A DNA stretch of 64,000 bases from an uncultured bacterium (GCA_963705505.1 CAVPJU010000006.1:352001-416000); one strand, 5' to 3'; shown: positions 7,332 to 22,615, numbered from the stretch's first letter. Made by a program: numbers and translations. The notes: generated by a model not told the origin, from the letters alone.

Positions 7332-8918
7332 CTAGGCGTGGTCCTGTGTCACTTTCTCTTTAGCCTTCATTATAAAAGGCTCGGAACCCCTTTTCCTTTC
7401 CTTGAAGTATGACAACAGCTGTTCGGCTTCATGAAACGGCAGGGTTACGAAAGAAAACTTATCGTGAATTTTAATGTCGTTTATTTTTTCACTTTTTATG
7501 CTGCATTTGTTCCGTATGAAATCCACCAGCTTCTTCGGCGTGAGCCTGTCCTGTTTGCCTTTTGTTACGAAGAGCCTGGTTTTACCCTTCAGGTCGACAA
7601 CCCCGTCTCCGATCTCAGTGTAACTCTTCTCGTCGAGCTCGTCCCTGAAAGTGTGCTGGAGCAGAGACGCTATTATATCCACAGGGCTCTTATTCTCCAT
7701 AAGCTCCTTCGACAGCTCGTAATACTCCGTCCCCGGTCGGGTGTTCAATAAATTTTCGAGCTCCGACTTAACCCGCTTCTTTCTGGTCTCTATGACGTCC
7801 TTTACCTGAGGGAGCTTCGCCTTCCTGATATCCGTCTTCGTCTCCCGGCTGATAAATTTAAGTTTTCTATATTCTTCAGGGGTAATAAACGTTATCGCGT
7901 TGCCTTCCTTGCCGGCGCGTCCCGTACGGCCTACCCTGTGCACATAGGACTTCGGGTCCTGGGGCAGGGCATAATTTATGACATGGGTCAGGTTCTGAAC
8001 GTCTATGCCCCTCGCGGCCACGTCCGTAGCCACGAGAATGTTGACCTGGCGCTTTTTAAACTTGTTAAGCGTCCTCTCCCTCTGGTTCTGAGACATATCG
8101 CCGTGCAGGGCGTCCGCATCGTAACCGCGCTTCATCAGCTTTCCCGCAACCTTGTCGGCATCCACCTTCGTCCTGCAAAAAATGAGACCGTAGAACTCTT
8201 CTTCCACGTCTATGATTCTGCAAAGGGCCTCGAATTTATCGGCAGCCGAAACCTCGAAATATATCTGGTCCGTCTGGCTCACTGTGAGCTGTTCCTGCTC
8301 GACCTTGAGCGTCTCGTATGTACGCATATGTTTTTTGGCGATTTGAATGACCTCGTGAGGCATGGTCGCCGAAAAAAGCATCGTACGCTTGTTATGCCCC
8401 GTGTACCCGATTATCTCCCGGACGTCATCGATAAACCCCATATCGAGCATCTCGTCAGCCTCGTCGAGAATGAGGTAAGAGATGTTATCGAGCTTGAGCG
8501 TCCCGCTCCGGAGGTGGTCGAGTATCCTTCCCGGCGTGCCCACGACGACGTCAACTCCCTTCCGGAGGCTCCTTAACTGCAAGCTCATCGACTGCCCGCC
8601 GTAAACAGGAATGATGCTGAGCTCTTTCCAGCCTTTTAACGAATTGATCTCCTCCGCCACCTGAATTGCTAACTCCCTCGTAGGCGCGAGGACGAGCGCC
8701 TGGACTGTCCTCGACTTTTCCTGAAGCAGCTCGATCAGAGGAATCCCGAACGCCGCCGTTTTGCCGGTCCCGGTCTGGGCCTGGGCGACTATATCGTCAT
8801 CCCCCTCCATAACAACCGGAATAACCAGCTCCTGGATCTTTGTCGGCATTTCATAGCCCTTTTTAGTAAGGACGTCGAGCGTCCTTTCCGATAAACCAAA
8901 ACTTTCAAATGATTTCAT
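7332..8918 (-). CDS. DEAD-box RNA helicase (DeaD/CsdA-like, with a C-terminal DbpA-type RNA-binding domain)
   Basis: AQTGTGKT, PTRELA, DEADEMLDMGF, SAT and HRVGRTGRAG; C-terminal RLFVTKGKQD..TP. Confidence 0.92.
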   Translation of the reverse strand: MKSFESFGLSERTLDVLTKKGYEMPTKIQELVIPVVMEGDDDIVAQAQTGTGKTAAFGIPLIELLQEKSRTVQALVLAPTRELAIQVAEEINSLKGWKELSIIPVYGGQSMSLQLRSLRKGVDVVVGTPGRILDHLRSGTLKLDNISYLILDEADEMLDMGFIDDVREIIGYTGHNKRTMLFSATMPHEVIQIAKKHMRTYETLKVEQEQLTVSQTDQIYFEVSAADKFEALCRIIDVEEEFYGLIFCRTKVDADKVAGKLMKRGYDADALHGDMSQNQRERTLNKFKKRQVNILVATDVAARGIDVQNLTHVINYALPQDPKSYVHRVGRTGRAGKEGNAITFITPEEYRKLKFISRETKTDIRKAKLPQVKDVIETRKKRVKSELENLLNTRPGTEYYELSKELMENKSPVDIIASLLQHTFRDELDEKSYTEIGDGVVDLKGKTRLFVTKGKQDRLTPKKLVDFIRNKCSIKSEKINDIKIHDKFSFVTLPFHEAEQLLSYFKERKRGSEPFIMKAKEKVTQDHA

Positions 8919-9277
8919 ACAGTAATCCTCTCCCTTATTACATTTCTCCTATTAAGGAATAAGACCCAATCAAGCATCAAGAATCGTTTTTGGAATTGTT
9001 GAATAATTGACTAAGTATTTTCTCGTGTTAGTAGATGTCATTATTATACCTTAAAAATATAAGTTGCACTATTACCCCGATTTTTTACCCGGCCTTTCCG
9101 ATTTTTTTGCATAATATCATCGACAAGTGACCTCAACAGACTTCGAAGTTTCATGAAGCTATAAACGAGGAAGTAGTACCAGTTAAGATTTTCACCGTTC
9201 GGGCCATCGCTTAATTAAAACCGGGAACATAACACAGTGCGATAGACGACCAGCGTAGTTCATCCAAACTCCCGAAT

Positions 9278-9306
9278 TTGACAGTTCATTCTTACGCACT
9301 TATAAT
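9278..9306 (+). promoter_or_regulatory. Perfect-consensus sigma70 promoter of the metal-uptake operon
   Basis: TTGACA(9278-9283)-17 nt-TATAAT(9301-9306). Confidence 0.85.
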
Positions 9307-9324
9307 TGAGAATCTTTCTCAATT
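9304..9324. promoter_or_regulatory. Fur/Zur-type operator (9-3-9 inverted repeat) overlapping the -10 and TSS
   Basis: AATTGAGAA-TCT-TTCTCAATT is a perfect inverted repeat resembling Fur/Zur boxes, directly upstream of a Fur-family gene. Confidence 0.8.
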
Positions 9325-9354
9325 GCAATATAGCACGGGCAAGGACAATTAATC

Positions 9355-9798
9355 ATGAAAACAAAATCCGGCAGATCAGAAAATTCAGAGAGTTTAAAGG
9401 CTATTTTTCACGCAAAAAGACTCAAATGCACGCCTCAGAGGTTAGCCGTGCTGAAAGTACTCAAGGAAAGCGGGGCTTACCTCTCGATAAATATGCTCGA
9501 CAAGAAGGTGAAGGAGATCCTTCCCGGAACAGGGCTTGCGACTGTGTACAGGGCGCTCGAAACGCTCGAAGAGTTAAACCTGGTAGTCAAGGTGCACCTC
9601 GAGGACGGGTGTCACAGCTACGCGGTCGCGCCCGAGGGGCACCGGCACCCGATAGTCTGCACGGAGTGCAACAAGGTCATCGAATTCGCGGAATGCCCGC
9701 TTGATAAGTTGTCCGAGAAGCTCTCGAAAGACACGGGCATCCTCATACAAAACCATTTCCTCCAGTTATTCGGGAAATGCAGGGAATGCCAGACTTAA
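9355..9798 (+). CDS. Fur-family metalloregulator (likely Zur-like, autoregulated)
   Basis: TPQRLAVL, ATVYRALETL, HRHPIVCTEC and GKCREC; it heads a Zn/Co/Ni uptake operon. Confidence 0.88.
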   Translation: MKTKSGRSENSESLKAIFHAKRLKCTPQRLAVLKVLKESGAYLSINMLDKKVKEILPGTGLATVYRALETLEELNLVVKVHLEDGCHSYAVAPEGHRHPIVCTECNKVIEFAECPLDKLSEKLSKDTGILIQNHFLQLFGKCRECQT

Positions 9799-9813
9799 GA
9801 AGGGGATATATAC

Positions 9814-10525
9814 ATGTCTCATATGCACATACCGGATGGAGTGCTTCCGATGTGGATCGTAACAGCGGGCTGGATAGCGACAGCCCTGGTACTGGCATTC
9901 TGCATCAGGAGGGTGAGCTCGATCGAGCTCAGGCGGAAGATACCGCTAGTCGGCATAATCTCAGCGCTCATGATAGTGGGCATGTCTCTCGAGATCGTAC
10001 CGATCGGATACCACGTAAACCTGAGCGTAATAGCGGGTATCGTTCTCGGCCCGGCCCTGGCTTTTATCTCGGTATTCATAGTGAACCTGATAATCTCGAT
10101 GTTCGGCCACGGGGGCGTTACGGTCGTCGGGCTCAACACCCTGGTCATAGGGGCCGAAGCGGTACTGGGCTATTACTTATTTCAATTATTCAGGTCGGTT
10201 ATAGGGGAAAAACCACTCGGCTGGGAATCCTCGCTCGCCGCCTTCCTGAGTCTTTTATTAAGCACATCCCTGATGCTGGGAATCGTATACCTATCTCATG
10301 TGAGCCCGGCAAAAATCGAGGACATCGGTCATCTGTTATCGGGAACGGGCAATAGCATAAGCGGAAATCAGGTCTGCGGACGACGGAATTAATTTCTCCA
10401 GGTTCGCCAAAACAGTCTTTATATTGGCCCCGCTGGGGTGGGTACTAGAGGCCGCGATAACGGGACTCGTCATCAAGTATGTATCCCGCGTTAGGCCCGA
10501 CCTGGTCGTGCAAGAGCGGGCATAG
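9814..10525 (+). CDS. cbiM: ECF transporter S component, CbiM/NikM family (one-base frameshift at ~10358)
   Basis: MHIPDG N-terminal signature. The reading continues in the +1 frame (AEIRSADDGINFSRFAKTVFILAPLGWVLEAAITGLVIKYVSRVRPDL...) to TAG 10523-10525. Confidence 0.8.
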
Positions 10526-10535
10526 GAGCGTATTC

Positions 10536-11361
10536 ATGGACGTTTCGGCAATTGATTATTACGCAAACCACGGAGCGAGCTTCCTGCACAAGGCCCGCGC
10601 CGTATCAAAGATTCTGTTTGCGGGGCTCGTTATCGCATCAGTCGTAATCACAAGCGACTTCTATCTCCTGCTCGCGATTTATCTATCACTTTTATCATTA
10701 GTTATATGGACGAGGCTCCCCGTGCTTAAGATAATCACTATTGCAGCATATCCCGCGTTATTCGCGCTGATATTCGCGGCCGCGACCTGGAACGGGAGCT
10801 GGGTACGCGCGGGCGTGATAATTTTGAAAGGCCCTGGACGCGGCGCTGGGAATGGTAATTCTCATAGTTACCACCCCTTATCCGGAGGTATTTTCATGTA
10901 TAAGACCCGTACTGCCGGGGATCATCTCCGAAGGACTTCTGCTCACATACAGGTCGCTTTTCATACTCCTCGAGCTCACCGACAACCTCGTCAGGGGCCT
11001 CAGGGTCAGGGGCGGACTCACACGCGGGAGATATATTAAAAACGTCGTTAATTTCTCCTCGGGAATCGGCCTATTGCTGGTAAGGGGGCTCGACATGTCG
11101 GAAAAGTTCTACGGAGTGCTGAGCGTCAGAGGGTACAGCGGAAAGATATCGGGAAGGGAGAGGGGAGAAAAGACAGGGGTGAACGACTTCACTGCTTTTT
11201 TAATAGGCGTAATAATATTTTCAGCAGCGTTATGGATACGAACCGATAGGGAAACGTCCGAATACGAAAGCTACTTCCTGGCCTTCTCCATAATCGCGCT
11301 TCTTACATCGTCGGCATATTTCTTACTTCCGAAACTCGGGGTGGAAGCTTGGAAGAAATAG
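10536..11361 (+). CDS. cbiQ: ECF transporter T component, CbiQ family (one-base frameshift at ~10828)
   Basis: MDVSAIDYYANHGASFLHK... joins ALDAALGMVILIVTTPYPE...RGG...RGYSG after removing one base. Confidence 0.78.
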
Positions 11362-12206
11362 TAAAGGTCAGAGACGTTAATTTTAAATACCCTGACGGGA
11401 CGGCTCTCAAATTCGACGGGCACGATTTCACCGTCAGGAAAGGGGAGCGCGTCGTAATGCTGGGGCCCAACGGGAGCGGAAAATCCACACTCCTGTCCCT
11501 CCTCCTCGGGCTCCTTAAACCTGTGGACGGCGAGATCGAGGTGCTTGGCGTAAGCCCCTCGAATGATTACGAAAAGATAAGGGAGAAGATCGGGGCGCTG
11601 CTTCAGAACGTAGACCTCCAGATCATAGCGCCCAGGGTGTGGGACGACGTCTCGTTCTCTCCCAGGAATTACGGCTACAAAGAAGAAGAAACCGCGAAGC
11701 TCGTGGACGATATACTGAAAAAGCTCGACATAGAGCATCTTAAGGATAAAGTCCCGCACTATCTGAGCGGAGGAGAAAAAACCAAGGTCGGGCTTGCGGG
11801 AGCGCTCGTAATCAAACCCGAGCTCCTCATACTGGACGAGCCGTTTGAGCACATCGACCCCGCCTGCAGGACGGAGCTGATCAAGTTATTAAATAAGGTG
11901 AATAAAGAAAACGGGACGGCTATAATTTTATCGACTCACAACATGAATACAGTCCCCTTGATCGCGGACACGGTTTACCTGATTGCGGAGGGCGGAAAGA
12001 TCGTGGGGAAAGGGACTCCGAAGGAAATATTTTCTCAGGTCGAGACCCTTTCCAAATGTCATATCGAGCCCCCGGTACTGGGAGAGCTATTCTCTGAGCT
12101 GAAAAAACTCGGGGTCGATATGGACGTCTCGCTTACGGTCGATGAAGCTGCTTGTACAATAGCAAACGCAATGGTATTATCGAAAAATAAAACGGGCCTC
12201 GGATGA
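11349..12206 (+). CDS. cbiO: ECF transporter ATPase, CbiO family
   Basis: GPNGSGKST, LSGGEK and LDEP; follows cbiM and cbiQ. Confidence 0.85.
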   Translation: MEEIVKVRDVNFKYPDGTALKFDGHDFTVRKGERVVMLGPNGSGKSTLLSLLLGLLKPVDGEIEVLGVSPSNDYEKIREKIGALLQNVDLQIIAPRVWDDVSFSPRNYGYKEEETAKLVDDILKKLDIEHLKDKVPHYLSGGEKTKVGLAGALVIKPELLILDEPFEHIDPACRTELIKLLNKVNKENGTAIILSTHNMNTVPLIADTVYLIAEGGKIVGKGTPKEIFSQVETLSKCHIEPPVLGELFSELKKLGVDMDVSLTVDEAACTIANAMVLSKNKTGLG

Positions 12207-12542
12207 AACCGATAAGAGATATTAACAAAAGCAGGCGTATCGAAATTTCTTATCCCCTTCCTGGGAGTACTCCTCGTTTTCTCGATCAGCTTACATAATC
12301 ACAAGATAAGCCTGAGCCCGGACTCTCACGTAACAATCACTGCCGCGTCGCATACGGCGAGTCATTCCGTGGACGGATGCTCCGCCTGTCTGCTTCACGG
12401 AAATATCAAGCTCACAGTTACGGAAACCGTCTTCAGTCTTATAGACGCCGGGCGATCAATTTCATTCAGCGAGAACGAACATTTAAATCCTTATACGTTT
12501 TTAAAACAAAATATCCCTTCCCGTTCACCTCCGGCGGTCTAA
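12203..12542 (+). CDS. DUF2946/CruR/CutF-like leader protein with CxxC and a C-terminal RSPP motif (apparent one-base insertion after codon 5)
   Basis: ATG 12203 overlaps the cbiO stop. From 12219 the frame is open: ILTKAGVSKFLIPFLGVLLVFSISLHNHKISLSPDSHVTITAASHTASHSVDGCSACLLHG...QNIPSRSPPAV* (TAA 12540-12542). Confidence 0.7.
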
Positions 12543-12693
12543 GCCGATAATCGTCATTCCGGCCCCCGGAGCCGCATTTTCAGCACACTAATTTCTTCAA
12601 GCCCCGAGTTATAGTACGCACTCATCAATTGGGACTATATCGCGGCATGTCCGACACATCCCGGATCCAAATCCGTCCGGGACTGACCGTGCG

Positions 12694-12756
12694 TCTCCTC
12701 CGGAAAGGCGATATCGAATCCGCTTCGATCATCTAACTACATTTTCGGAGGTGAGA
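12694..12756 (+). promoter_or_regulatory. Hairpin sequestering the SD of the downstream outer-membrane gene
   Basis: TCTCCTCCGGAAA (12694-12706) pairs with TTTTCGGAGGTGAGA (12742-12756), which contains GGAGG before ATG 12758. Confidence 0.6.
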
Positions 12757-12757
12757 T

Positions 12758-14143
12758 ATGAATTACGCAAGAATTATTGCGATATTGATAATTTCTTTTA
12801 TTGCTTCCTCCCCGTTTTTATACAACGATGCGTTCGGGCAGGAGAGCGATGACGTTAAGAACGAAATAAAAGAGCTTAAACAGATGATGGAGAAAATGCA
12901 GCAAAGAATCACCGACCTCGAGGAAAAGAACAGGGTCCTCGAGCAGCAGGCGAAAGAGAAAGTGAAAGAGAATGTCGTCGTAAAAGAGGAGACACAAATA
13001 ATTCCGGCAGCGCCTCCGCCCCAGCAGGAGAGCTTTTTAAGCAAAGTGGCTCAAACGCTAAACCCCGATATTAGCGTTATAGGTATTTTTGCTGCGGCTT
13101 GGTACTCCCGGAACGATCCGTACGTTTTTGCCGAGGACGACCCGCAAAATACCGGAGTAAATTTACAGGAGCTGGAATTGGCTTTCCAAAGTATTGTCGA
13201 TCCGTATTTCAGGTTCGACACATTCATCTCATTAAAGCAGGATAGTGTGGAGGTAGAGGAAGCGTACGGGACCTCGCTATTCAGCATGCCTCTGAATACG
13301 CAGTTCAGGATGGGGCGTATGAGGGCGAAATTCGGAAGGATTAACCAGATACATACGCACGCCCAGAACTTCGTCACCCTCCCGCTAGTCGCTGCTGAGT
13401 TCCTGGGCGAGCATCTGAACCCGACGAGCATAGAGACCGATTTCCTCATCCCCGTGCCCTGGTTCATGGAGCTGAGCGCTTTGGGCGGCAGCCCCGATGT
13501 CGAGACCCCGACGTTTGCCACGGATGAGGCTAACGCGAATAACCTGGCCTACCTGCTCTACGTCTTTCACCTCGCTAATTTCTTCGAAGTGAGCGACTCT
13601 CTCGGAGTAAACCTCGGAGCTTCATTCGCCACGGGCAGCAACGGAACGGGCCCTAAGGAACGCTCGAACCTCTACGGAGCCGACCTCTACGCTAAATACA
13701 GACCGCTCAGAAACAGCCCGTATACGGAACTCAAGCTCCAGTCGGAGTTCATGTGGAGGCAGGCGGACACGCCTGAAGAGAAGCTCGAGGACTACGGATT
13801 TTATGCGGAGGGAATCTACAGGTTCGCAAAGAGATGGAACACGGGAATGAGATTCGATCTGACCGATACGAACACCCCCGTCGCAGGCGTCCAAGACGGC
13901 GTTGAACTCGTATCCGCGGACTCTGCTGACCTCGTCAGCAGCAGAGCGATCAATCCGGGAGAGACATTAGGATTACCGGGGAGGGCGTATCGCATATCGC
14001 CCATGCTGACCTTCAGCCCGAGCGAATTCTCACAATTCAGGCTAGAGTACGATTACCTGAACCAGAACTATGCAGGAAACCAGCACGCTATCTTCCTGCA
14101 GTTCCAGTACGCGATAGGGGCTCACGGGGCGCATCCTTATTAA
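12758..14143 (+). CDS. Outer-membrane beta-barrel protein (putative metal-uptake porin) with an N-terminal coiled coil
   Basis: Signal peptide, coiled coil (EIKELKQMMEKMQQRITDLEEKN), LNPDISVIG, amphipathic beta strands and a His-containing C-terminus GAHGAHPY. It lies directly upstream of znuA-like genes. Confidence 0.7.
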   Translation: MNYARIIAILIISFIASSPFLYNDAFGQESDDVKNEIKELKQMMEKMQQRITDLEEKNRVLEQQAKEKVKENVVVKEETQIIPAAPPPQQESFLSKVAQTLNPDISVIGIFAAAWYSRNDPYVFAEDDPQNTGVNLQELELAFQSIVDPYFRFDTFISLKQDSVEVEEAYGTSLFSMPLNTQFRMGRMRAKFGRINQIHTHAQNFVTLPLVAAEFLGEHLNPTSIETDFLIPVPWFMELSALGGSPDVETPTFATDEANANNLAYLLYVFHLANFFEVSDSLGVNLGASFATGSNGTGPKERSNLYGADLYAKYRPLRNSPYTELKLQSEFMWRQADTPEEKLEDYGFYAEGIYRFAKRWNTGMRFDLTDTNTPVAGVQDGVELVSADSADLVSSRAINPGETLGLPGRAYRISPMLTFSPSEFSQFRLEYDYLNQNYAGNQHAIFLQFQYAIGAHGAHPY

Positions 14144-14163
14144 TCAAATTTGCTCAGGAGGAA

Positions 14164-15153
14164 ATGAATATGAAACGGTATAACATTCTTCACTGCTTCA
14201 CGGTATTCATTACTTTCGTCCTCATCTCCATTTTCTTCTACACTGGGGATGCATCGGCGAAGGTACATATAGTCGCTTCGCTCCCCGACCTTGGGGCAAT
14301 CGCGCAGGAAATAGGGGGTGACAAGGTCGATGTGGTAACCCTGGCCAAGGGGTACCAGGACCCGCACTTTGTGGACGCAAAGCCCACATACGTGACGAAG
14401 CTTAACAGGGCGGACCTTCTCATCTACAACGGACTCGATCTCGAGATCGGCTGGCTGCCCCCTCTGATCACAGGGTCCAGGAACTCCAAGATCACGTCCA
14501 CGGACGCCCTCGGACGTCTCGACGCTTCCGCCTATATCCCACAGGTGCTTGAAGTACCGACTACGCAGATCGACAGATCGATGGGAGACATACATCCGAA
14601 AGGCAATCCGCATTACCTCCTCGACCCGAGGAACGGTATTCCCATTGCCGCCGGGATAACGGCGAGATTAAAGGAGATCGACCCGGAAAACGCCTCTTAT
14701 TACGAGGAGAATTACAAAAAATTTGCCGATAACCTGAATGCAGAAAATAAAGCAATGGGACGAGGAGCTCGCTCCTTATAAAGGAACGGAGATCGTTTCT
14801 TATCACAAAAACCTCAATATCTTTCGGAGTGGGTCGGATTTAAGGAAGTGGGATTATAGAGCCGAAGCCAGGCATACCTGCCGTCGCCGTCCCACGTCGC
14901 CGACCTGATCAAACAAATGAAAGCGACGGACGTGAAGCTCGTTATTGCTTCAAACTATTATCCCCAAAAAACCGGTTCGCTCATCGCTGATCAGACAGGC
15001 GCTGTGTTCCTATCCATACCCACAAGCGTAGGGGGGCAGGACGGGATTAATACATACTTCGACCTGTTCGATGTGATCGTGGACGATATAACCTCGGCAT
15101 TGAAGAATAAAACGGGATCGACGAATCATTCGGCCTCGAAGGCGGGTGGATAG
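14164..15153 (+). CDS. znuA: Zn/Mn ABC transporter substrate-binding protein, ZnuA/TroA family (about four indels at 14740-14880)
   Basis: QDPHFVDAKP and GDIHPKGNPHYLLDP. The C-terminal pieces KIKQWDEELAPYKGTEIVSYH / YLSEWVGFKEVG / IEPKPGIP / PSPSHVADLIKQMK lie in shifting frames. Confidence 0.75.
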
Positions 15154-15165
15154 TTACGCGTACCA

Positions 15166-15216
15166 ATGTAGCCCCCTGTGCTATCTCTCCTAACCGAAAT
15201 ACTCAGGGGACTACAT
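15166..15216 (+). other. Intergenic stem-loop after the substrate-binding protein gene
   Basis: ATGTAGCCCCCTG (15166-15178) / CAGGGGACTACAT (15204-15216). It may stabilise the znuA segment of the mRNA. Confidence 0.45.
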
Positions 15217-15250
15217 GGTTTATTCAATCAGAAGGACGGTCAGAAATCGG

Positions 15251-15988
15251 ATGGCAAACTTAATAAGACTCGAAGACGTGACTCTAGGATATGAGAACAG
15301 AGGAATATTGGGTCCTCTAGACCTTTCGATAGAGAGGGGCCAATTCTGGGGCATATTAGGTCAGAACGGGGGCGGAAAATCCACACTACTCAAAACTCTT
15401 CTGGGCCTGCTTCCGCCCGTTTCGGGAAACATAGAATCGGCAGAAGAAATCGTATTCGGATATGTGCCTCAGCATGAGAAATTCGACCCGATATTCCCTG
15501 TTTCGGCAGAGGAGGTCGTATCCATGGGGAGATACAGCAGGGTCTCCGCGGGAAAAAGGCTCACGAACTCAGATCGCGAAGCGGTAACGCTGTCCCTGGA
15601 AAAAGTCGGAATAAGTCATTTGAAAGACCGCACATTCAGGTCCCTCTCGGGGGGAGAGAAGCAGCGTACTCTCCTCGCCCGCGCCATATCAGGCGAGCCC
15701 GACATACTCGTCCTCGACGAGCCTACCGCGTCTGTCGATCTAAAGGGAGAGGCGCAAATCATGGAGCTCGTGCAAAAGATCAGGTCCGATGACGGGCTGA
15801 CCGTACTGATGGTGAGCCACTTTTTAAACACGGTTACCAATTACGCGGACATGATTATGTTGATCGATAAGGACAGCGGATATTTCAAGGCAGGCGGCAG
15901 AAGCGAAGTACTGACCGATGACAATTTAAGTAAATTCTTCGGACTGAGCGCCGGCTCTCAGCAGATGAAGAGTTTGAGAGAAATCTAG
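15251..15988 (+). CDS. znuC: Metal ABC transporter ATP-binding protein (ZnuC-like)
   Basis: GQNGGGKST, GYVPQ, LSGGEKQR and LDEPTASVD. Confidence 0.85.
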   Translation: MANLIRLEDVTLGYENRGILGPLDLSIERGQFWGILGQNGGGKSTLLKTLLGLLPPVSGNIESAEEIVFGYVPQHEKFDPIFPVSAEEVVSMGRYSRVSAGKRLTNSDREAVTLSLEKVGISHLKDRTFRSLSGGEKQRTLLARAISGEPDILVLDEPTASVDLKGEAQIMELVQKIRSDDGLTVLMVSHFLNTVTNYADMIMLIDKDSGYFKAGGRSEVLTDDNLSKFFGLSAGSQQMKSLREI

Positions 15989-16010
15989 ATATGGGGACAA
16001 GGCATAATTA

Positions 16011-16864
16011 ATGGGAATATTAAAAGAATTTATAGACAGCTATTTTCTCTGGCGGGACCCGATGATAGTAGGGGCGGTTTCGGGCGCCATATGCGGCTTC
16101 CTTGGCGTGTACGTCGTGCTCAGGAGAATAATCTTCGTAAGCGCAGCGCTTACTCAAATCTCGAGCTTCGGAGTAGCCCTTTCTTTTTACCTCGAGGGGT
16201 ACAGCCTGGGAGCGCTGGCATCTTTGATACATCCCTTCATTCTGTCTATAGCCCTCACTTCGCTCGCTGCCCTCTTTTTCGCTCTCAAAAGAGACTATTC
16301 GCGCATAAGCCGGGAAGGGGTGATAGGTTTCGGGTTTTTAATCGCTTCGGGGGCGGTCGTAATACTCGGGGACAGAATAACCAAAGGCGCTCACGATATA
16401 GCGAATATCCTTTTCGGGAGCGCCGTCGTCGTTGATCCAAAGGACCTGTTAATAATTCCCGCTAGTTGCTCTCGCGGCAGCGATAATCCATGCCATTTAC
16501 TTTAAAGATTTTATATTCGTTTCGTTTCGACGAAGAATCCGCACGGTTATTCAAGTATCCGGTCAGAATGCTCAATACAGTTATGCTTATTACCATAGCC
16601 GTAGTGGCGTCCGTATCGACCAGAGCGCTTGGGGCGCTTCCGGTCTTCGCGTTCCTCGCCCTCCCGCCTCTCACTTCACTATTTCTGACGGAGAAGCTCA
16701 AGCTTGTTTTCGCGCTCTCGGTAATAGTGGGCGTATCGTCGGCAACGCTCGGTTATTTCTTCTCGTTCATACTGTCCATTCCGACAGGGGCTTCCATGGC
16801 GGTCTGCGCTTCGATCTTTTTCATCCTGGGTCTCTTGTGGCGTGAGGTTAGAATCAGGATTTAG
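16011..16864 (+). CDS. znuB: Metal ABC transporter permease (ZnuB-like; frameshifts at ~16461 and ~16526)
   Basis: CGFLGVYVVLRRIIFVSAAL and ILFGS; the restored join reads LVALAAAIIHAIYFKDFIFVSFDEESAR. Confidence 0.78.
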
Positions 16865-16865
16865 A

Positions 16866-17417
16866 ATGAGGATAAGACAAATAATGAACGCATTATTGCA
16901 GACTATGAAATGTCTCCCGCACGCAATGCCGCTGCTGCTTTCAGCGTTCCTTATATTCTCCGCGTGCAGTAAATACGGAAAAGTCGCCGAGACCCTGGAT
17001 TTTTTAAAGTTCGAAAGCTTTAACTGCGACGTGGTCAGAGTCGAAGGAAGCGGCAGTTTTTTTTGCCAGCTCCCGGACATGGACATAGAAACAATCAGGC
17101 TCATCGGAATCAGCATCCCGGCGGAGAGTGAAAACGATGCGAAGAAATATTGCGAATCGGTACTGAGCAGGGGGACGCTCGTAAAAGTAGAGCCCGATAA
17201 GGAGCTGAGGGAAAAAGAGGGAGACATTCCGGCTTACGTATTCGTTCCGGGCGGGAAAATGCTGAATGTTCTCCTTATAGAAAAGGGATATGCAAAACCG
17301 GTTACAAAAGAGCTCAATGAAAAGTATATGAATTTATTTGTCGGAGCCCAGAAAGAAGGAAAAACAGAAAAGAACGAGGCTACAGATGAAGGAGAAAAGC
17401 CGCCCTGGCTCAAGTAA
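16866..17417 (+). CDS. Thermonuclease (SNase)-fold lipoprotein with a degenerate active site
   Basis: Lipobox LIFSAC; VVRVEGSGSF..IRLIGISIP..AYVF..MLNVLLIEKGYAK follows the SNase pattern. Confidence 0.65.
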   Translation: MRIRQIMNALLQTMKCLPHAMPLLLSAFLIFSACSKYGKVAETLDFLKFESFNCDVVRVEGSGSFFCQLPDMDIETIRLIGISIPAESENDAKKYCESVLSRGTLVKVEPDKELREKEGDIPAYVFVPGGKMLNVLLIEKGYAKPVTKELNEKYMNLFVGAQKEGKTEKNEATDEGEKPPWLK

Positions 17418-17427
17418 TGAAACGGAC

Positions 17428-18099
17428 ATGCCGATATTAGAAATTACGGATCTCAAAAAAAGTTATATCTCTCCGGAAGGAGAGAGCTTATTAGTGATAG
17501 ACGTACCTCATTTCTCACTGGAAAAAGGGGAACATGCAGCCCTCATGGGAGACAGCGGTTCGGGCAAGACCACTCTTCTAAACCTTATAGCAGGAATACT
17601 GAGACCCGACAGCGGGATAATACTCCTTGCGGAGAAGGATATGTCGACTCTTTCCGAATCAGGAAGGGACAGGCTGAGGGCCGAGAACATAGGGTACATA
17701 TTTCAAACCTTTAACCTGCTTCAGGGCTATTCGGCGCTTGAGAACGTAATGCTCGGGATGATGTTCGGCAGCGGAGAGGATAAGAGTTTGGCGCATTCAC
17801 TCCTTCAAAGAGTCGGCCTCGGTGACCGGATCAATTACATGCCCGGTCAACTATCCGTCGGGCAGCAGCAGCGGGTCGCCGTAGCGAGAGCGCTGGCAAA
17901 CCGTCCCAGACTGGTCCTCGCCGACGAGCCTACGGGGAACCTCGACTTCCGGAATTCGGGCGAAGCCGTAAACCTGATCCGCGGGATATGCGGCGAGAAC
18001 GACGCCGCGCTCCTGCTCGTTAGCCACGATCAGAACGTGCTCGATAAATTCGAGCGAGTGGAGAAATTGAGTGAAATAAATCGTGCGCTGAATTATTGA
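17428..18099 (+). CDS. ABC transporter ATP-binding protein (LolD/ZrgB-like)
   Basis: GDSGSGKTT, IGYIFQTFNL, LSVGQQQRVAVARAL and ADEPTGNLD. Confidence 0.88.
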   Translation: MPILEITDLKKSYISPEGESLLVIDVPHFSLEKGEHAALMGDSGSGKTTLLNLIAGILRPDSGIILLAEKDMSTLSESGRDRLRAENIGYIFQTFNLLQGYSALENVMLGMMFGSGEDKSLAHSLLQRVGLGDRINYMPGQLSVGQQQRVAVARALANRPRLVLADEPTGNLDFRNSGEAVNLIRGICGENDAALLLVSHDQNVLDKFERVEKLSEINRALNY

Positions 18100-18118
18100 G
18101 GCGTAAGCGGGTACTGCT

Positions 18119-19384
18119 ATGAACAAATTAAGCGGAATTTTTCTTATAGTAAGGAAGAGCCTGATCCATCATAAGCTGTCGACGGTCGTGACTGTTATCT
18201 CAGTGGCGCTCGCAGCGGGCCTCGTCATGTCCGTATTCTGCATAAGAAATCAGACCTATGATGCGTTTACGGGGGGTCCCGTCGGATTCGACGCTGTGCT
18301 CGGGGCACGCGGCAGTCAGCTGCAGCTCGTATTGAATGCGGTATTTCACCTCGAAACATCTCCCGGAAATATTCCCTGGGAAATGTATCAGGCGGTCAAA
18401 CGAAATCCGAACGTCGTGCTCGCTATCCCCTATGCGGTCGGAGACAATTACAGGGGCTGGAGGATCGTAGGGACGGACAATCAGTTATTTACGGACTTCG
18501 AATACCGTAAAGGAAAAAAATTCAAAGTCAGTCCGGGAGGCAGGCTTTTCGACCCTCAGAAAAAAGAAGCCGTCGTCGGCAGCTACGTCGCAGACAAGAC
18601 CGGCTTGAAGGTAGGCTCGAAATTCCACCCCTTCCACGGCCTGGTATTCGACGAAAGGATGCGCCACGAGGATGAGTACACAGTGGTCGGAGTCTTGGAA
18701 CCCACAAACTCACCTTCCGACAGGGTGGTCTGGATACCGATCGAGGAATTCTACCGTATGTCGGGACACGTGCTCAGGGGTGCGGGAGACGTTTACACGC
18801 CTGTCGCGGGACAAGAAATACCCGATAAAGACAAGGAAGTGAGCGCCGTAATGCTGAAGCTAAAAAATCCGCAGGCGGGGTTCTTACTCGATCAGACGAT
18901 AAACAAGCAGGGAAAAGTCGCCACTCTCGCGTGGCCGATAGGAAAAGTCATGGCAGATCTGTTCGGAAAAATAGGATGGGTGAACAATATCCTGACTCTC
19001 GTCGCATATCTCGTCGTTGTCGTTGCGGCAGGGTCCATACTGGCGAGCATATACAACACTATGAATGAAAGGAAACGGGAATTCGCGATTCTCAGGGCGC
19101 TCGGAGCGAGGAGAAATACGGTATTTACGGCGATAGTTACAGAATCGGCATCGATAGCGCTAATGGGAACTTTATTTGGGTACCTGGTCTATGGAGCAAT
19201 TTTAACCGGAGCGGCTGTGATCGTAAGGGAGCAAACGGGCGTTGCGCTCGACATATTCCAGTTTAACTGGGTGCTGATTATAAATCCGGTCGTCATGGTT
19301 CTGCTGGGCGCCGGGGCCGGGATAATCCCCGCCGTAAAAGCATACTCCACGGATGTCGCGACTAATCTAGCGCCCTCTTCCTGA
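18119..19384 (+). CDS. MacB/FtsX-type ABC permease (ZrgC-like)
   Basis: GARGSQLQLVLNAVFH and ERKREFAILRALGA, with a large periplasmic domain. Confidence 0.82.
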   Translation: MNKLSGIFLIVRKSLIHHKLSTVVTVISVALAAGLVMSVFCIRNQTYDAFTGGPVGFDAVLGARGSQLQLVLNAVFHLETSPGNIPWEMYQAVKRNPNVVLAIPYAVGDNYRGWRIVGTDNQLFTDFEYRKGKKFKVSPGGRLFDPQKKEAVVGSYVADKTGLKVGSKFHPFHGLVFDERMRHEDEYTVVGVLEPTNSPSDRVVWIPIEEFYRMSGHVLRGAGDVYTPVAGQEIPDKDKEVSAVMLKLKNPQAGFLLDQTINKQGKVATLAWPIGKVMADLFGKIGWVNNILTLVAYLVVVVAAGSILASIYNTMNERKREFAILRALGARRNTVFTAIVTESASIALMGTLFGYLVYGAILTGAAVIVREQTGVALDIFQFNWVLIINPVVMVLLGAGAGIIPAVKAYSTDVATNLAPSS

Positions 19385-19393
19385 GGAGAAACG

Positions 19394-19888
19394 ATGGCTT
19401 CAGCGAATAATCTTACAGAGAGGTCAAGTATGAAACAGTTAATCGCGGTATTTTTAGCTCTCTTGTTCTCGGCTTCGGCTCTAAGCGCACACGAACATCA
19501 CGCCCCGCACGGGGGGACTTTAGTCGAGTTCGGTGAGGAATTCGCGCACCTGGAGCTTGTCCTGGATCCCGGGACAGGGACCCTGACCGGCTATTCTCTC
19601 GACGGGGAAGCTGAAAATCCTGTACGCATAGAGCAGGATGATATAGAGATTCGAATCACGGCTGTAAACACGCAAGGCGTAGGAGAGGGTAAAATAATCT
19701 ATACTTTAAAATTAGAGGCTGTGCCGAACGTTCTCACGGGCGAGACACTGGGCGACACTTCCGAATTTACCGCCCAATCGGATAAATTGAAGGGTGCACA
19801 GAACTTCGACGGGGTTATTTCAGCTATAAATATTAAGGGACAAAGTTTCAAAGATGTTAAATTCAGGTTTCCAGAGGGAAATGAGTAA
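19394..19888 (+). CDS. Exported His-rich putative metal-binding protein
   Basis: Signal peptide, then AHEHHAPHGGTLVEFGEEFAHLELV. An alternative start lies at 19430. Confidence 0.65.
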   Translation: MASANNLTERSSMKQLIAVFLALLFSASALSAHEHHAPHGGTLVEFGEEFAHLELVLDPGTGTLTGYSLDGEAENPVRIEQDDIEIRITAVNTQGVGEGKIIYTLKLEAVPNVLTGETLGDTSEFTAQSDKLKGAQNFDGVISAINIKGQSFKDVKFRFPEGNE

Positions 19889-19893
19889 ATCAT

Positions 19894-20445
19894 TTGAAGA
19901 GAACCGATCTCATCAGGAGCAACAAATTGAATGATAGGAAACGCATAAACTGGAACAGGATAATAACAAAAGCCCTTGTAGTCTGCAGTATTCTGTTCTT
20001 GCCCATACTCGGTATTCATTACAGACCCACCCCGAGTTTCGATTATTCCGCTGTGAATGCGCTTGAAACTGAAAACGGGGCGATAAAAGTCGACTTCGAT
20101 TTCCTGGGAGGGTTCGACTACGAAAAAGAAGAGAAAATTCCGGAAAAGGTTAAAGACCTTAACGGTAAAACGATCAAAGTGATCGGATTTATGCTGCCCA
20201 TCGATTTTGACTCGGGTGTGGTCAAGAGCTTTATGTTACTCAAGAATCAGATGGGGTGCTGCTTCGGAATAATGCCGAGGGTAAATGATTTTGTATACGT
20301 GGAAATGCCTGAAGGACAAAGTGCAAAGTATATCATGGACACTCCCCTGAGAGTCACAGGCAGGCTCGAAGTCGTCAAAGAGAACCTCGTGGGCGGACTA
20401 TATTCAATGACCGCAGACAAGGTGGAGGTCTTTAAGAATTATTGA
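19894..20445 (+). CDS. DUF3299 (ZrgD-like) domain protein
   Basis: LNGKTIKVIGFMLP...FMLLKNQMGCCFGIMP..N.FVYV...VTGRL...LYSM matches the DUF3299 pattern. Confidence 0.7.
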   Translation: MKRTDLIRSNKLNDRKRINWNRIITKALVVCSILFLPILGIHYRPTPSFDYSAVNALETENGAIKVDFDFLGGFDYEKEEKIPEKVKDLNGKTIKVIGFMLPIDFDSGVVKSFMLLKNQMGCCFGIMPRVNDFVYVEMPEGQSAKYIMDTPLRVTGRLEVVKENLVGGLYSMTADKVEVFKNY

Positions 20446-20698
20446 GTGCTTCAAGCGGGATAGACTCGTCTATAAGCAATATCGGTATTTCGTCTCTGAT
20501 CGGATAAAGGTATTTCCGGTCTTCTTTCCGTATAAGCCCCCCGTCGATCTTCTCAGAAACCCTTTGTTTTGACCTGTTCAGCAGCTCGCCCTTTTCTATA
20601 AGCAGGTTTATTCTTTCAACAATCTCGGGCTCTGCAATGACCAGGTCCTGCTTTGTTTCGGGACAGGCTATTATGTCAAGCAATTCCTTGTCTATCAT
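20432..20698 (-). CDS. Trm112/YcaR-like protein
   Basis: MIDKELLDIIACPETKQDL...YPIRDEIPILLIDES. Confidence 0.85.
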   Translation of the reverse strand: MIDKELLDIIACPETKQDLVIAEPEIVERINLLIEKGELLNRSKQRVSEKIDGGLIRKEDRKYLYPIRDEIPILLIDESIPLEALNNS

Positions 20699-20785
20699 AA
20701 TTTACCCGGGGCAGTCAATTTCGGCTAAAAAAAATTTTACTGGTATCGAGCGCCTTAATCATTAGAATACATATATGAAGATTAA

Positions 20786-21610
20786 ATGCAAAAGGAGCAT
20801 AAAAACATGAATAAAGTTTCTCTGATTTTACTGTTTTTCGCAGCTATTCTGATCGGCTCGGCAGCCGGGACAACTGCAGCACCCGGTGCGGGGGATAATG
20901 AAATAAAGATCGAAGCCGTTCCGAACTCTCCCGCTTTCCCCGGAGCAAAGGCACGGTTCGCCTCGCTCAAAGACGGAGACGTGCTCAAAAACCCCAACGT
21001 CTCGGTCGTAGTCGATGTCGAAAATTACGTGCTCGGGGTGCAGACCGATAACGAAAGAGCGAAGGAAATAATGAATTCGAAGGAAGGACAGCACGCCCAC
21101 ATAATACTGGATAACGGCCCCTATCTGGCGGACTACACATCGGGGAAGCCTTTTAAAATTGGGGTGCTTACAGAAGGCCCCCATACATTGATAGTTTTTC
21201 CGAGCCGCTCTTATCACGAGAGTGTGAAATCGCCCGAGGCTGCCGATATAGTCAATTTCTATGTCGGTAAGAAAGAAGGGGAATTCCTTATGGATAAATC
21301 CAAGCCGGCCATCATCTACAGCAGACCCAAGGGGAAATACGAGGGAGCCGGCGCTGAGAAGGTCATGCTCGACTTTTATCTCAATAACGTCGAGCTCAGC
21401 CCCGACGGATACAAAGCGAAGTACACGGTGAGGAAAAAGGATTCGGCGGGTGAAGTTACCTCGATCATTCTTACGGATTGGACCCCCGCATTCGTGACCG
21501 GACTCACGACCGGGGATTATGTCATAACTCTTCAGCTCCTGGATAAAGACGGGAACGTCGTCGAAGGACCCTTCAACAATGTGGAAAGGGTGATCAGTGT
21601 TGTGAGGTGA
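20786..21610 (+). CDS. Conserved exported protein
   Basis: Signal peptide; motifs GQHAHIILDN, FPSRSYHESVK and YSRPKGKY. Confidence 0.7.
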   Translation: MQKEHKNMNKVSLILLFFAAILIGSAAGTTAAPGAGDNEIKIEAVPNSPAFPGAKARFASLKDGDVLKNPNVSVVVDVENYVLGVQTDNERAKEIMNSKEGQHAHIILDNGPYLADYTSGKPFKIGVLTEGPHTLIVFPSRSYHESVKSPEAADIVNFYVGKKEGEFLMDKSKPAIIYSRPKGKYEGAGAEKVMLDFYLNNVELSPDGYKAKYTVRKKDSAGEVTSIILTDWTPAFVTGLTTGDYVITLQLLDKDGNVVEGPFNNVERVISVVR

Positions 21611-21901
21611 TTGAGCTGTCGATATGTGAAGCTTAATTACAGGGGAACCCGGGTTGTAGGACCATGCGCACGGCTAGTCGTTATCCCCCGTGCAACAAAA
21701 GATTGCGGCGGTGGGAGGAAGCCCGATAAATCCCGCCATACTGGAATTAGCATCGGTCTATACTGAAACCTGCTTATATCATTAATATTATTTTGTTCCG
21801 CATGTGCCGGAAATTATGTCTTTATTTTAGTGACGGGTTTACAAAATTTATTATTGTGGAATAATTAATGGCTTCCTGAAAGAAATGATGAGGTGATAGA
21901 G

Positions 21902-22141
21902 ATGTCTCAGAAATGCATGATAACCGGAAAGAGCCCCCTCGTAGGGAACAACGTTTCACATGCCAATAACAAGGTAAAACGCCGCCAGAACCCGAACCTC
22001 CAGTGGAAACACGTTTTCGTGCCGGAGCTCGACCGCAACGTGAGAATCCGGGTTTCGACGCGAGCCATAAGGACAATCAATAAAAAGGGACTTTCCGCCT
22101 TCCTCAAGGACAACGGTCTCACGCTGAAGGACCTGATTTAA
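21902..22141 (+). CDS. rpmB: 50S ribosomal protein L28
   Basis: MSQKCMITGKSPLVGNNVSHANNKVKRRQNPNLQ; GAGGTG SD at ~21890. Confidence 0.95.
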   Translation: MSQKCMITGKSPLVGNNVSHANNKVKRRQNPNLQWKHVFVPELDRNVRIRVSTRAIRTINKKGLSAFLKDNGLTLKDLI

Positions 22142-22195
22142 ATCCCGATATAAAACACTGGAATTTCCACCGGCCACGATTATATTAATTATCGT

Positions 22196-22615
22196 ATGTC
22201 TATAAATACAAGACTCAGAGAGGGCCGCTACATCTTTAGGGCAGCTCAACGGGCAAAAAATATATTGAGCGATGAGAGCACAGTGAGGGATCTCATAGGC
22301 TCGGCCTCAGCCAAAATAGAATCCGGCGGCAGCAGATTAACATCCATGAAGAACGACCTCGGGACGCTTCTCGAGCTTCTTAAAGCCTGGATAAGCGGTG
22401 ATTACAGGGAGCTGCCCTGGACGAGTTTACTGATGGTGACAGGCGCGGTTATCTATTTCGTAAACCCCTTTGACGCAATCCCCGACATTCTGCCCGCATC
22501 AGGGCTTCTCGATGACGCGGGCGTGATAGGCTTCGTACTGGCGTCCATGAAGAGCGATATCGAGAATTTCAGGAAGTGGCAATCAAACGCGATATCCCCT
22601 GACGCCTCTTTTTAA
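22196..22615 (+). CDS. YkvA/DUF1232 family membrane protein
   Basis: YFVNPFDAIPDILPASGLLDD motif. Confidence 0.85.
   Translation: MSINTRLREGRYIFRAAQRAKNILSDESTVRDLIGSASAKIESGGSRLTSMKNDLGTLLELLKAWISGDYRELPWTSLLMVTGAVIYFVNPFDAIPDILPASGLLDDAGVIGFVLASMKSDIENFRKWQSNAISPDASF

Follow-up and report, generated by a model that had tools for sequence, protein, structure and literature searches.

A conserved leader open reading frame (ORF) lies between cbiO and the gene of a predicted outer-membrane porin, and it very probably gates the porin by ribosome stalling. We propose that an exported arrest peptide, acting in cis, sets translation of the porin and of the coupled znuABC genes according to metal on the envelope side of the membrane, and put the probability of this whole proposal at roughly 0.55. 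The locus belongs to a genome of 2.9 Mb in 10 contigs; the window, i.e. the whole stretch of DNA analysed here, comprises 64 000 nucleotides. Its genes are arranged in the order fur-family regulator, cbiM, cbiQ, cbiO, leader gap, 461-residue barrel, znuA, znuC and znuB, and 3′ of znuB follow an SNase-like gene and then an ABC/FtsX/DUF3299 block. Homologues of the barrel carry the taxon labels Thermodesulfobacteriota or Candidatus Dadabacteria.

A conserved leader ahead of the barrel gene

The leader (12203..12542, plus strand; 112 residues in relatives) begins at an ATG (12203) that overlaps the cbiO stop and ends with a stop codon at 12540-12542. It contains a putative hydrophobic export or anchor segment (12246..12293, +), a putative metal site (12294..12389, +) and an RSPP arrest-type motif (12522..12533, +). 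The ATG over the cbiO stop, the hydrophobic segment, HNH, CSAC and RSPP had all been described in the initial annotation of this DNA, and each was found where it had been placed. In an alignment of 28 leaders (19-66% identical to the window's leader; the long-tailed row L006 was left out) the hydrophobic segment is present in every member and only eight columns are invariant: H, H, H, C, C, R, P and P. Five of the eight form the putative metal site, namely the HxH (HNH, 12294-12302), a His (12363-12365) five residues before the CxxC, and the CxxC itself (CSAC, 12378-12389); the remainder are the R, P and P of the motif. The longer His-rich string of the initial annotation is thus conserved at these three His, whereas the two His between them vary. 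The motif reads RSPP in 22 and RAPP in seven of 29 leaders, and the gap between CxxC and RxPP is 44 residues in 27 of them (42 and 43 in the remaining two). Leaders are 99-122 residues long, with PP two to three residues from the end in 27/29.

The barrel gene is present in 34 of the 41 genomes searched. Thirty loci were fetched (the window's and 29 from relatives) and 29 have the leader; an intact leader precedes the barrel in 28 of the 29 relatives' loci, which bears out the expectation that CxxC…R[ASG]PP upstream ORFs would stand before homologous barrels and rules against chance. At the sole leaderless locus of the 30, a ZIP-like membrane gene (a label given by reading) sits directly upstream of the barrel. 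A second, overlapping set of 40 loci, three of them without enough upstream DNA, gave a leader in 36 of the 37 named Dadabacteria loci for which 700 nt or more of upstream sequence is available, and the two sets together yield 42 unique leaders among 65 rows. A leader profile finds one strong copy in each of 30/41 genomes and 59 clusters among 1.8 billion representatives; the 48 clusters that were read by eye mostly keep the signal, HxH, CxxC and R[SA]PP. Neither pattern nor profile finds a second leader of the same kind in this genome, and the window's leader has no Pfam or NCBIfam match. The comparisons support well the view that this is a real, conserved, cis-acting leader of the arrest type, with export and arrest as its presumed activities. 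Two variants were noted in passing. L006 (genome G004) has other codons around PP and an ORF extended by 13 residues, which may reflect decay or an error. In family f2 (L078, L093, L095 and L096) the place of cbiMQO, after the regulator and ahead of leader or barrel, is taken by a membrane gene labelled ZIP-like by eye.

As assembled, the window's leader is frameshifted: ATG 12203 and the frame that encodes the hydrophobic segment, HNH, CSAC and RSPP are offset by one base. One extra base had been suspected initially, and rightly so, but its position 'after codon 5' turns out to be the earliest possible one; a DNA alignment with seven relatives places it at ~12227-12235, after codon 9-10, and a related-strain contig has one base fewer at 12234. 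The close relative L061 has a 112-residue leader ORF with the same cbiO overlap and intact cbi and znu genes. Between 9300 and 17000 single-base errors interrupt at least five operon genes (cbiM, cbiQ, the leader, znuA and znuB), and contigs of related strains differ from the window by single bases at 10826, 14740, 14817, 14854, 14880, 16465 and 16524, seven positions that coincide with the splits of cbiQ, znuA and znuB. Because cbiM, cbiQ, znuA and znuB are split alike, and because the related contigs differ at the matching places for cbiQ, znuA and znuB, the extra base in the leader is probably an assembly error, as judged from contigs of related strains rather than of the same strain. The broken ORFs of this assembly should not be read as pseudogenes. 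We give very little credence to the idea that the leader encodes a small metal chaperone that works in trans in the periplasm, or is a true pseudogene here that leaves the porin Shine-Dalgarno (SD) sequence locked. The signal-like segment and the metal ligands are compatible with it, as is a frame that is broken in the assembly; its position, spacing and codon-level pairing (see below) are, however, features of a cis element, and the similar splits in four neighbouring genes point to assembly errors.

Predicted pairing of the arrest-type codons with the Shine-Dalgarno region

The leader stop is followed by a structured spacer of 215 nt (12543..12757, +), confirmed at the length first reported. 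The region 12500-12790 folds with z = -4.69, and 0/200 shuffled sequences were as stable. In the predicted minimum-free-energy (MFE) and centroid folds the extended SD region of the barrel gene (GGAGGTGA, 12745..12755, +; GGAGG at 12747-12751, barrel ATG at 12758) forms an 11-bp helix with 12524..12534 (+), the anti-SD strand provided by the arrest codons, and this helix unites both ends of the spacer and closes it as a long stem. Structural burial of the SD, as initially suggested, thus stands as a prediction, but the partner in the MFE fold is the distant RSPP codons and not a local stem at the spacer end. The local hairpin was demoted from main fold to alternative; only if the spacer's 5′ arm is blocked does the hairpin arm (~12694-12707) pair with the SD.

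In relatives the spacer (stop to SD) measures 49-205 nt, and folding pairs the SD with the RxPP codons at P > 0.5 in 22/29 loci. Codon choice within the motif points the same way. The first Pro codon is CCT in 37 of 42 leaders; genome-wide CCT accounts for 22% of Pro codons, and in the remainder of the leaders for 31%. Across the 42 leaders 85% of cells pair between motif and SD in the native register, compared with 39-47% when the motif is slid. When all synonymous recodings are ordered by SD pairing, the native motif codons come among the best 10% at 37/42 loci and four upstream control codons at 2/42; a caveat to these figures is the partial complementarity of every Pro-Pro codon pair to GGAGG, together with the kinship of the loci. 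L006, mentioned above, is the only main-set locus of its genus at which SD pairing ranks at chance. At a possible compensating position, the wobble of the second Pro codon, no A-C mismatch occurs in the 42 leaders (shuffle p 0.004). We rejected this covariation as support, the signal being confounded by GC content and not significant over independent pairs (1-3 concordant, 0 discordant). Across 8900-22500, Rfam gave no family above threshold and one chance glycine-riboswitch match (E 0.67), and a riboswitch reading was dropped.

When a ribosome footprint through the motif is blocked in the folding, the opening energy of the ribosome-binding site falls by more than 2 kcal/mol in 36/42 loci, compared with 2/42 for a control block that ends before the motif. 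In the window it drops from 14.0 to 9.1 kcal/mol and the median drops from 14.1 to 8.8 kcal/mol, which is not zero; with the block in place the predicted fold keeps the SD mostly paired to other partners (mean 0.73; below 0.5 in 4/29). This residual pairing is one reason to weigh a different output, Rho-dependent termination in the spacer with the SD helix secondary, as in the CruR leader of Bordetella pertussis, which uses Rho termination with a 162-nt spacer. Rho is encoded in this genome and the spacers contain more C than G in 34/42. We nevertheless hold Rho as the main output to be quite unlikely, since the spacers shrink to ~50 nt in several relatives and are highly structured, and since codon choice is tuned to the SD. 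The presence of Rho and the C-rich spacers do suggest that termination may add to SD control.

A distant branch bears on the same question. Sixteen further regions were fetched, two of them already in the earlier sets and 14 from genus g14, whose barrels are distant. Twelve of the 14 g14 loci have a leader of different sequence and the same plan (signal, His cluster, CxxC, 43-45 residues, RGPP), two have none, and five have a second leader copy before znuA. In these five (L108, L109, L111, L112 and L117) promoter, leader, spacer and barrel signal peptide are duplicated as a module, giving znuA a control copy of its own. Pairing between RGPP codons and SD is predicted in only 2/17 g14 leaders; the anti-SD has shifted to the codons just after PP and lies under the ribosome footprint in 14/17. 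That g14 keeps the principle with another anti-SD argues for function over shared ancestry, and an anti-SD that moved yet stayed under the footprint also speaks against Rho termination as the main output. Sequestration of the SD by the arrest codons is, in our judgement, probably the main output of the leader.

The proposed switch would operate in four steps. The first is visible in the sequence: fixed distances separate the hydrophobic segment, the cluster of three His and two Cys, and RSPP. Secondly, as we infer from CruR and ApdA/ApdP, the ribosome would stall with the two Pro codons in its P and A sites, and the His/Cys cluster, 44 residues back, would at that moment be just across the membrane. 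Thirdly, and here folding and codon statistics lend support, the stalled ribosome would cover the anti-SD nucleotides, so that the porin SD opens and the importer is made; given that the gated product is an importer, the stalled state should be the low-metal state. Fourthly, plentiful metal would bind the His3Cys2 cluster and end the arrest, the ribosome would depart, the helix re-form and translation stop, and Rho may in addition degrade the untranslated message or terminate it. Arrest and RNA pairing would share the same 12 nucleotides, and the two are separable by synonymous versus missense changes.

Probably gated genes, likely metal and transcription

The barrel (12758..14143, +) is a 461-residue outer-membrane β-barrel with a predicted porin fold, an N-terminal coiled coil and no TonB-type plug (AlphaFold model from a 52-row alignment, pLDDT 67; the single-sequence fold reached pLDDT 37). 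Its top Foldseek matches are OmpT, OprP, OprO and chitoporin, and no TonB-dependent (plug-type) receptor is among the top matches listed. The barrel reached no Pfam cut-off, and a search for an annotated homologue on plasmids returned two 24% matches without useful names. The family is marked by a conserved GAHxAHx[YF] sequence at the C terminus; in several relatives a late loop contains inserts rich in His and Asp, and related barrel clusters occur in Acidobacteriota and Nitrospirota. Downstream lie the znuA-, znuC- and znuB-type genes of an ABC importer (14164..16864, +; Pfam ZnuA, ABC_tran and ABC-3; intact in L061). In the binding protein the third ligand position is occupied by His, in place of the Glu of the manganese protein PsaA, and the fourth carries no acid; at what we take to be the ligand positions this gives the His-His-His pattern of ZnuA, and by sequence the pattern is of the zinc type. 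The plug-less barrel followed by ZnuABC that had been read from the sequence is thus supported by the porin-fold model and by this ZnuA-type protein.

Zinc is the most likely metal, at about even odds against all others together; copper is also possible, and His3Cys2 chemistry is compatible with Cu, Ni or Co as well. The initial annotation had named Zn, Ni or Co rather than Cu. Within that range zinc is favoured over Ni and Co: 10/36 leader loci lack cbiMQO upstream, and in these the leader stays with barrel-znuABC, while znuA follows the barrel wherever the sequence extends (33/36 loci; the contigs of the other three end first). We consider it unlikely that the same stalling and anti-SD switch answers to a different signal, be it another metal (Cu, or Ni/Co with CbiMQO) or the redox state of the CxxC. 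Such a signal would fit the two characterised prototypes, CruR and CutF, both of which sense Cu through CxxC, and a regulator whose metal is not fixed by sequence; cbiMQO, or parts of it at contig ends, stands directly upstream in 26/36 leader loci, and PMC9973294 links His-only CutF-like leaders to Ni/Co genes. It sits poorly with a gated ZnuA/ABC-3 importer that has a His-His-His site, with a leader that keeps to barrel-znuABC when cbiMQO is missing, and with three invariant His that exceed the CxxC hallmark of DUF2946.

An attempt to name the metal through the regulon was given up: the operator described below occurs once in the genome, a search of the genome for a COG0523-type gene found no clear one and weak cobW matches only, and the single L28 gene found (21893-22141) has one Cys and lacks a zinc-ribbon pattern. 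3′ of the operon, 17338-20445 encodes an ABC ATPase, a MacB/FtsX permease, a His-rich exported protein and a DUF3299 protein, a block that presumably resembles the Zur-regulated PA4063-4066 type. DUF2796 is a zinc-binding protein.

The fur-cbiMQO operon has a sigma-70 promoter (TTGACA-17-TATAAT, 9278..9306, +) that matches the consensus at 12/12 positions and has the same layout in relatives. Overlapping its -10 element is a palindromic Fur-family operator (AATTGAGAA-N3-TTCTCAATT, 9304..9324, no strand assigned), recognised by conservation and matrix score: it was found by eye in 27/28 regulator-upstream regions and has no other strong counterpart in this genome (it scores 35.1, the next site 18.1). 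Where searched, it occurs in single copy per genome, as in a one-operon regulon of a Fur paralogue. The regulator (9355..9798, +; Pfam FUR) is one of four Fur paralogues and followed by the cbiM, cbiQ and cbiO genes of an ECF-type transporter (9814..12206, +; Pfam CbiM, CbiQ and ABC_tran; intact in L061). It had been called Fur/Zur; membership of the Fur family holds, but the Zur name cannot be called on sequence alone, since no NCBIfam subfamily cut-off is reached, the best PDB matches are Fur, and the operator was not matched to a published Zur consensus. By context the regulator is probably Zur-like.

The leader had been viewed as a second layer of control inside this operon. It is the fifth gene by position here and the first gene in several relatives, and it may instead head its own transcript: a promoter scan points to a candidate internal promoter in the 3′ end of cbiO (TTGTAC-17-TATTAT with a TG extension, 12152..12180, +), 22 nt before the leader ATG. 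The A of the candidate -10 element is a codon wobble that is kept in 30/30 cbiO-linked loci, across Val, Leu and Ala codons, and xTA codons occupy that position in 28/30 compared with 482/1944 Val/Leu codons (~25%) in the barrel genes. If this promoter is used, the leader would be the first gene of a transcript that lacks the single Fur-family operator. Relatives combine both controls or have one of them, the numbers being small: two genomes have the leader only (L113 and L116 of g14, with no close regulator orthologue) and three the operator only (L118, L119 and L120). A strict search pattern had suggested that leader and operator are mutually exclusive in g14; this was rejected, as inspection by eye showed a variant box ahead of three g14 leaders. 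A joint reading, which we offer as tentative, is that the leader is an envelope-side zinc arrest switch whose arrest codons are the anti-SD, transcribed from its own promoter in cbiO and able to substitute for a cytoplasmic repressor. If that were true, the uncharacterised porin family would be an energy-independent route of zinc entry. The locus also gives an unannotated porin family a likely role, and it shows gene callers overlooking such a regulator when an assembly is error-prone.

Comparison with known arrest leaders

RxPP-type cores that follow an export signal are known from ApdA/ApdP and SecM (PMC12992588), and RSPP is partly permissive for arrest in ApdA/ApdP, although weaker than RAPP in reporters (PMC12992588). 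Those leaders monitor protein export, precede sec or yidC genes and have no His/Cys metal site. We think it very unlikely that the present leader is likewise a monitor of export capacity, in which pulling by the translocon would release the arrest and the His and Cys residues would be structural. RAPP-type motifs are the classic mark of Sec/YidC monitors, and the products gated here are exported proteins; yet downstream are metal importers and not Sec factors, the five potential metal ligands are invariant while everything between them drifts, and the CxxC-RxPP spacing is fixed as in CruR.

CruR (Bp2923), a DUF2946/PF11162 protein of B. pertussis whose family is tied to copper, arrests on its two Pro codons (PMC12992588), and according to PMC9426467 the DUF2946 family has ~45 residues between CxxC and a RAPP-type motif. 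The present leader shares with CruR a putative export signal, the CxxC, a gap of ~45 residues, the C-terminal RxPP, a long spacer and an outer-membrane uptake gene downstream, and its predicted logic is likewise that of uptake, with the stalled state on. DUF2946 genes are usually the first gene of their transcript. Three invariant His are added here and most leaders have RSPP; the gated genes encode a plug-less porin and a ZnuABC-type importer instead of a TonB-dependent transporter with Cu genes, and the output is apparently SD pairing by the arrest codons, whereas that of CruR is Rho termination. The DUF2946-type kinship proposed initially holds for the plan and the CxxC-RxPP spacing (CxxC in 28/28 leaders, RSPP or RAPP mostly 44 residues on) but neither for the downstream genes, which are not copper genes, nor at the level of the profile, PF11162 matching 0/28 members at E ≤ 1 and nothing in the genome. 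An indirect link exists: of 44 distant profile matches scanned, three reach PF11162 at E < 0.01 and one is above the cut-off, and the leader profile matches that one with probability 94 and E 1e-7. Its closest neighbours in the Atlas are unnamed clusters; one cluster that is partly DUF2946 lies at 0.95.

CutF of Rhodobacter capsulatus, as described in PMC9973294 and bioRxiv 10.1101/2025.02.05.636593, is likewise an exported nascent sensor whose stalling opens a structure that hides the SD, as predicted here, and the leader has the CutF-like features listed in PMC9973294 (fewer than 150 residues, PP within the last 15 residues, a same-strand gene less than 1000 nt downstream). CutF differs in its CxxxC, its PPP-type motif and a stem-loop between the genes, the anti-SD of our leader being its last codons, and also in direction: Cu induces stalling in CutF and leads to a detoxifying oxidase, and the predicted logic of our leader is the reverse. 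Release of arrest by metal binding, opposite to CutF, has been proposed for CruR. Both PMC12992588 and PMC9973294 leave open by what route metal bound outside the membrane would release or prolong the arrest.

The arrangement had been thought undescribed, which is correct for the main texts only. The main text of PMC12992588 does not contain the word 'zinc', and its survey covered RAPP/RGPP, with RSPP leaders outside; the source data of its Fig. 4B, on the other hand, list without discussion RAPP upstream ORFs before 'zinc-regulated' outer-membrane proteins, so that such leader-gene pairs are already in print as raw rows. The available part of the bioRxiv CutF paper (10.1101/2025.02.05.636593) has no 'zinc', and a search of the literature outside subscription journals turned up no paper that describes either an arrest leader responsive to zinc or the present operon. 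In the literature covered, nascent-peptide arrest sensing is shown for copper only, by CruR and CutF. The present leader would work like these two and is outside Pfam DUF2946; a version coupled to a zinc-type importer would, if true, extend arrest sensing to a second metal and would read zinc on the envelope side.
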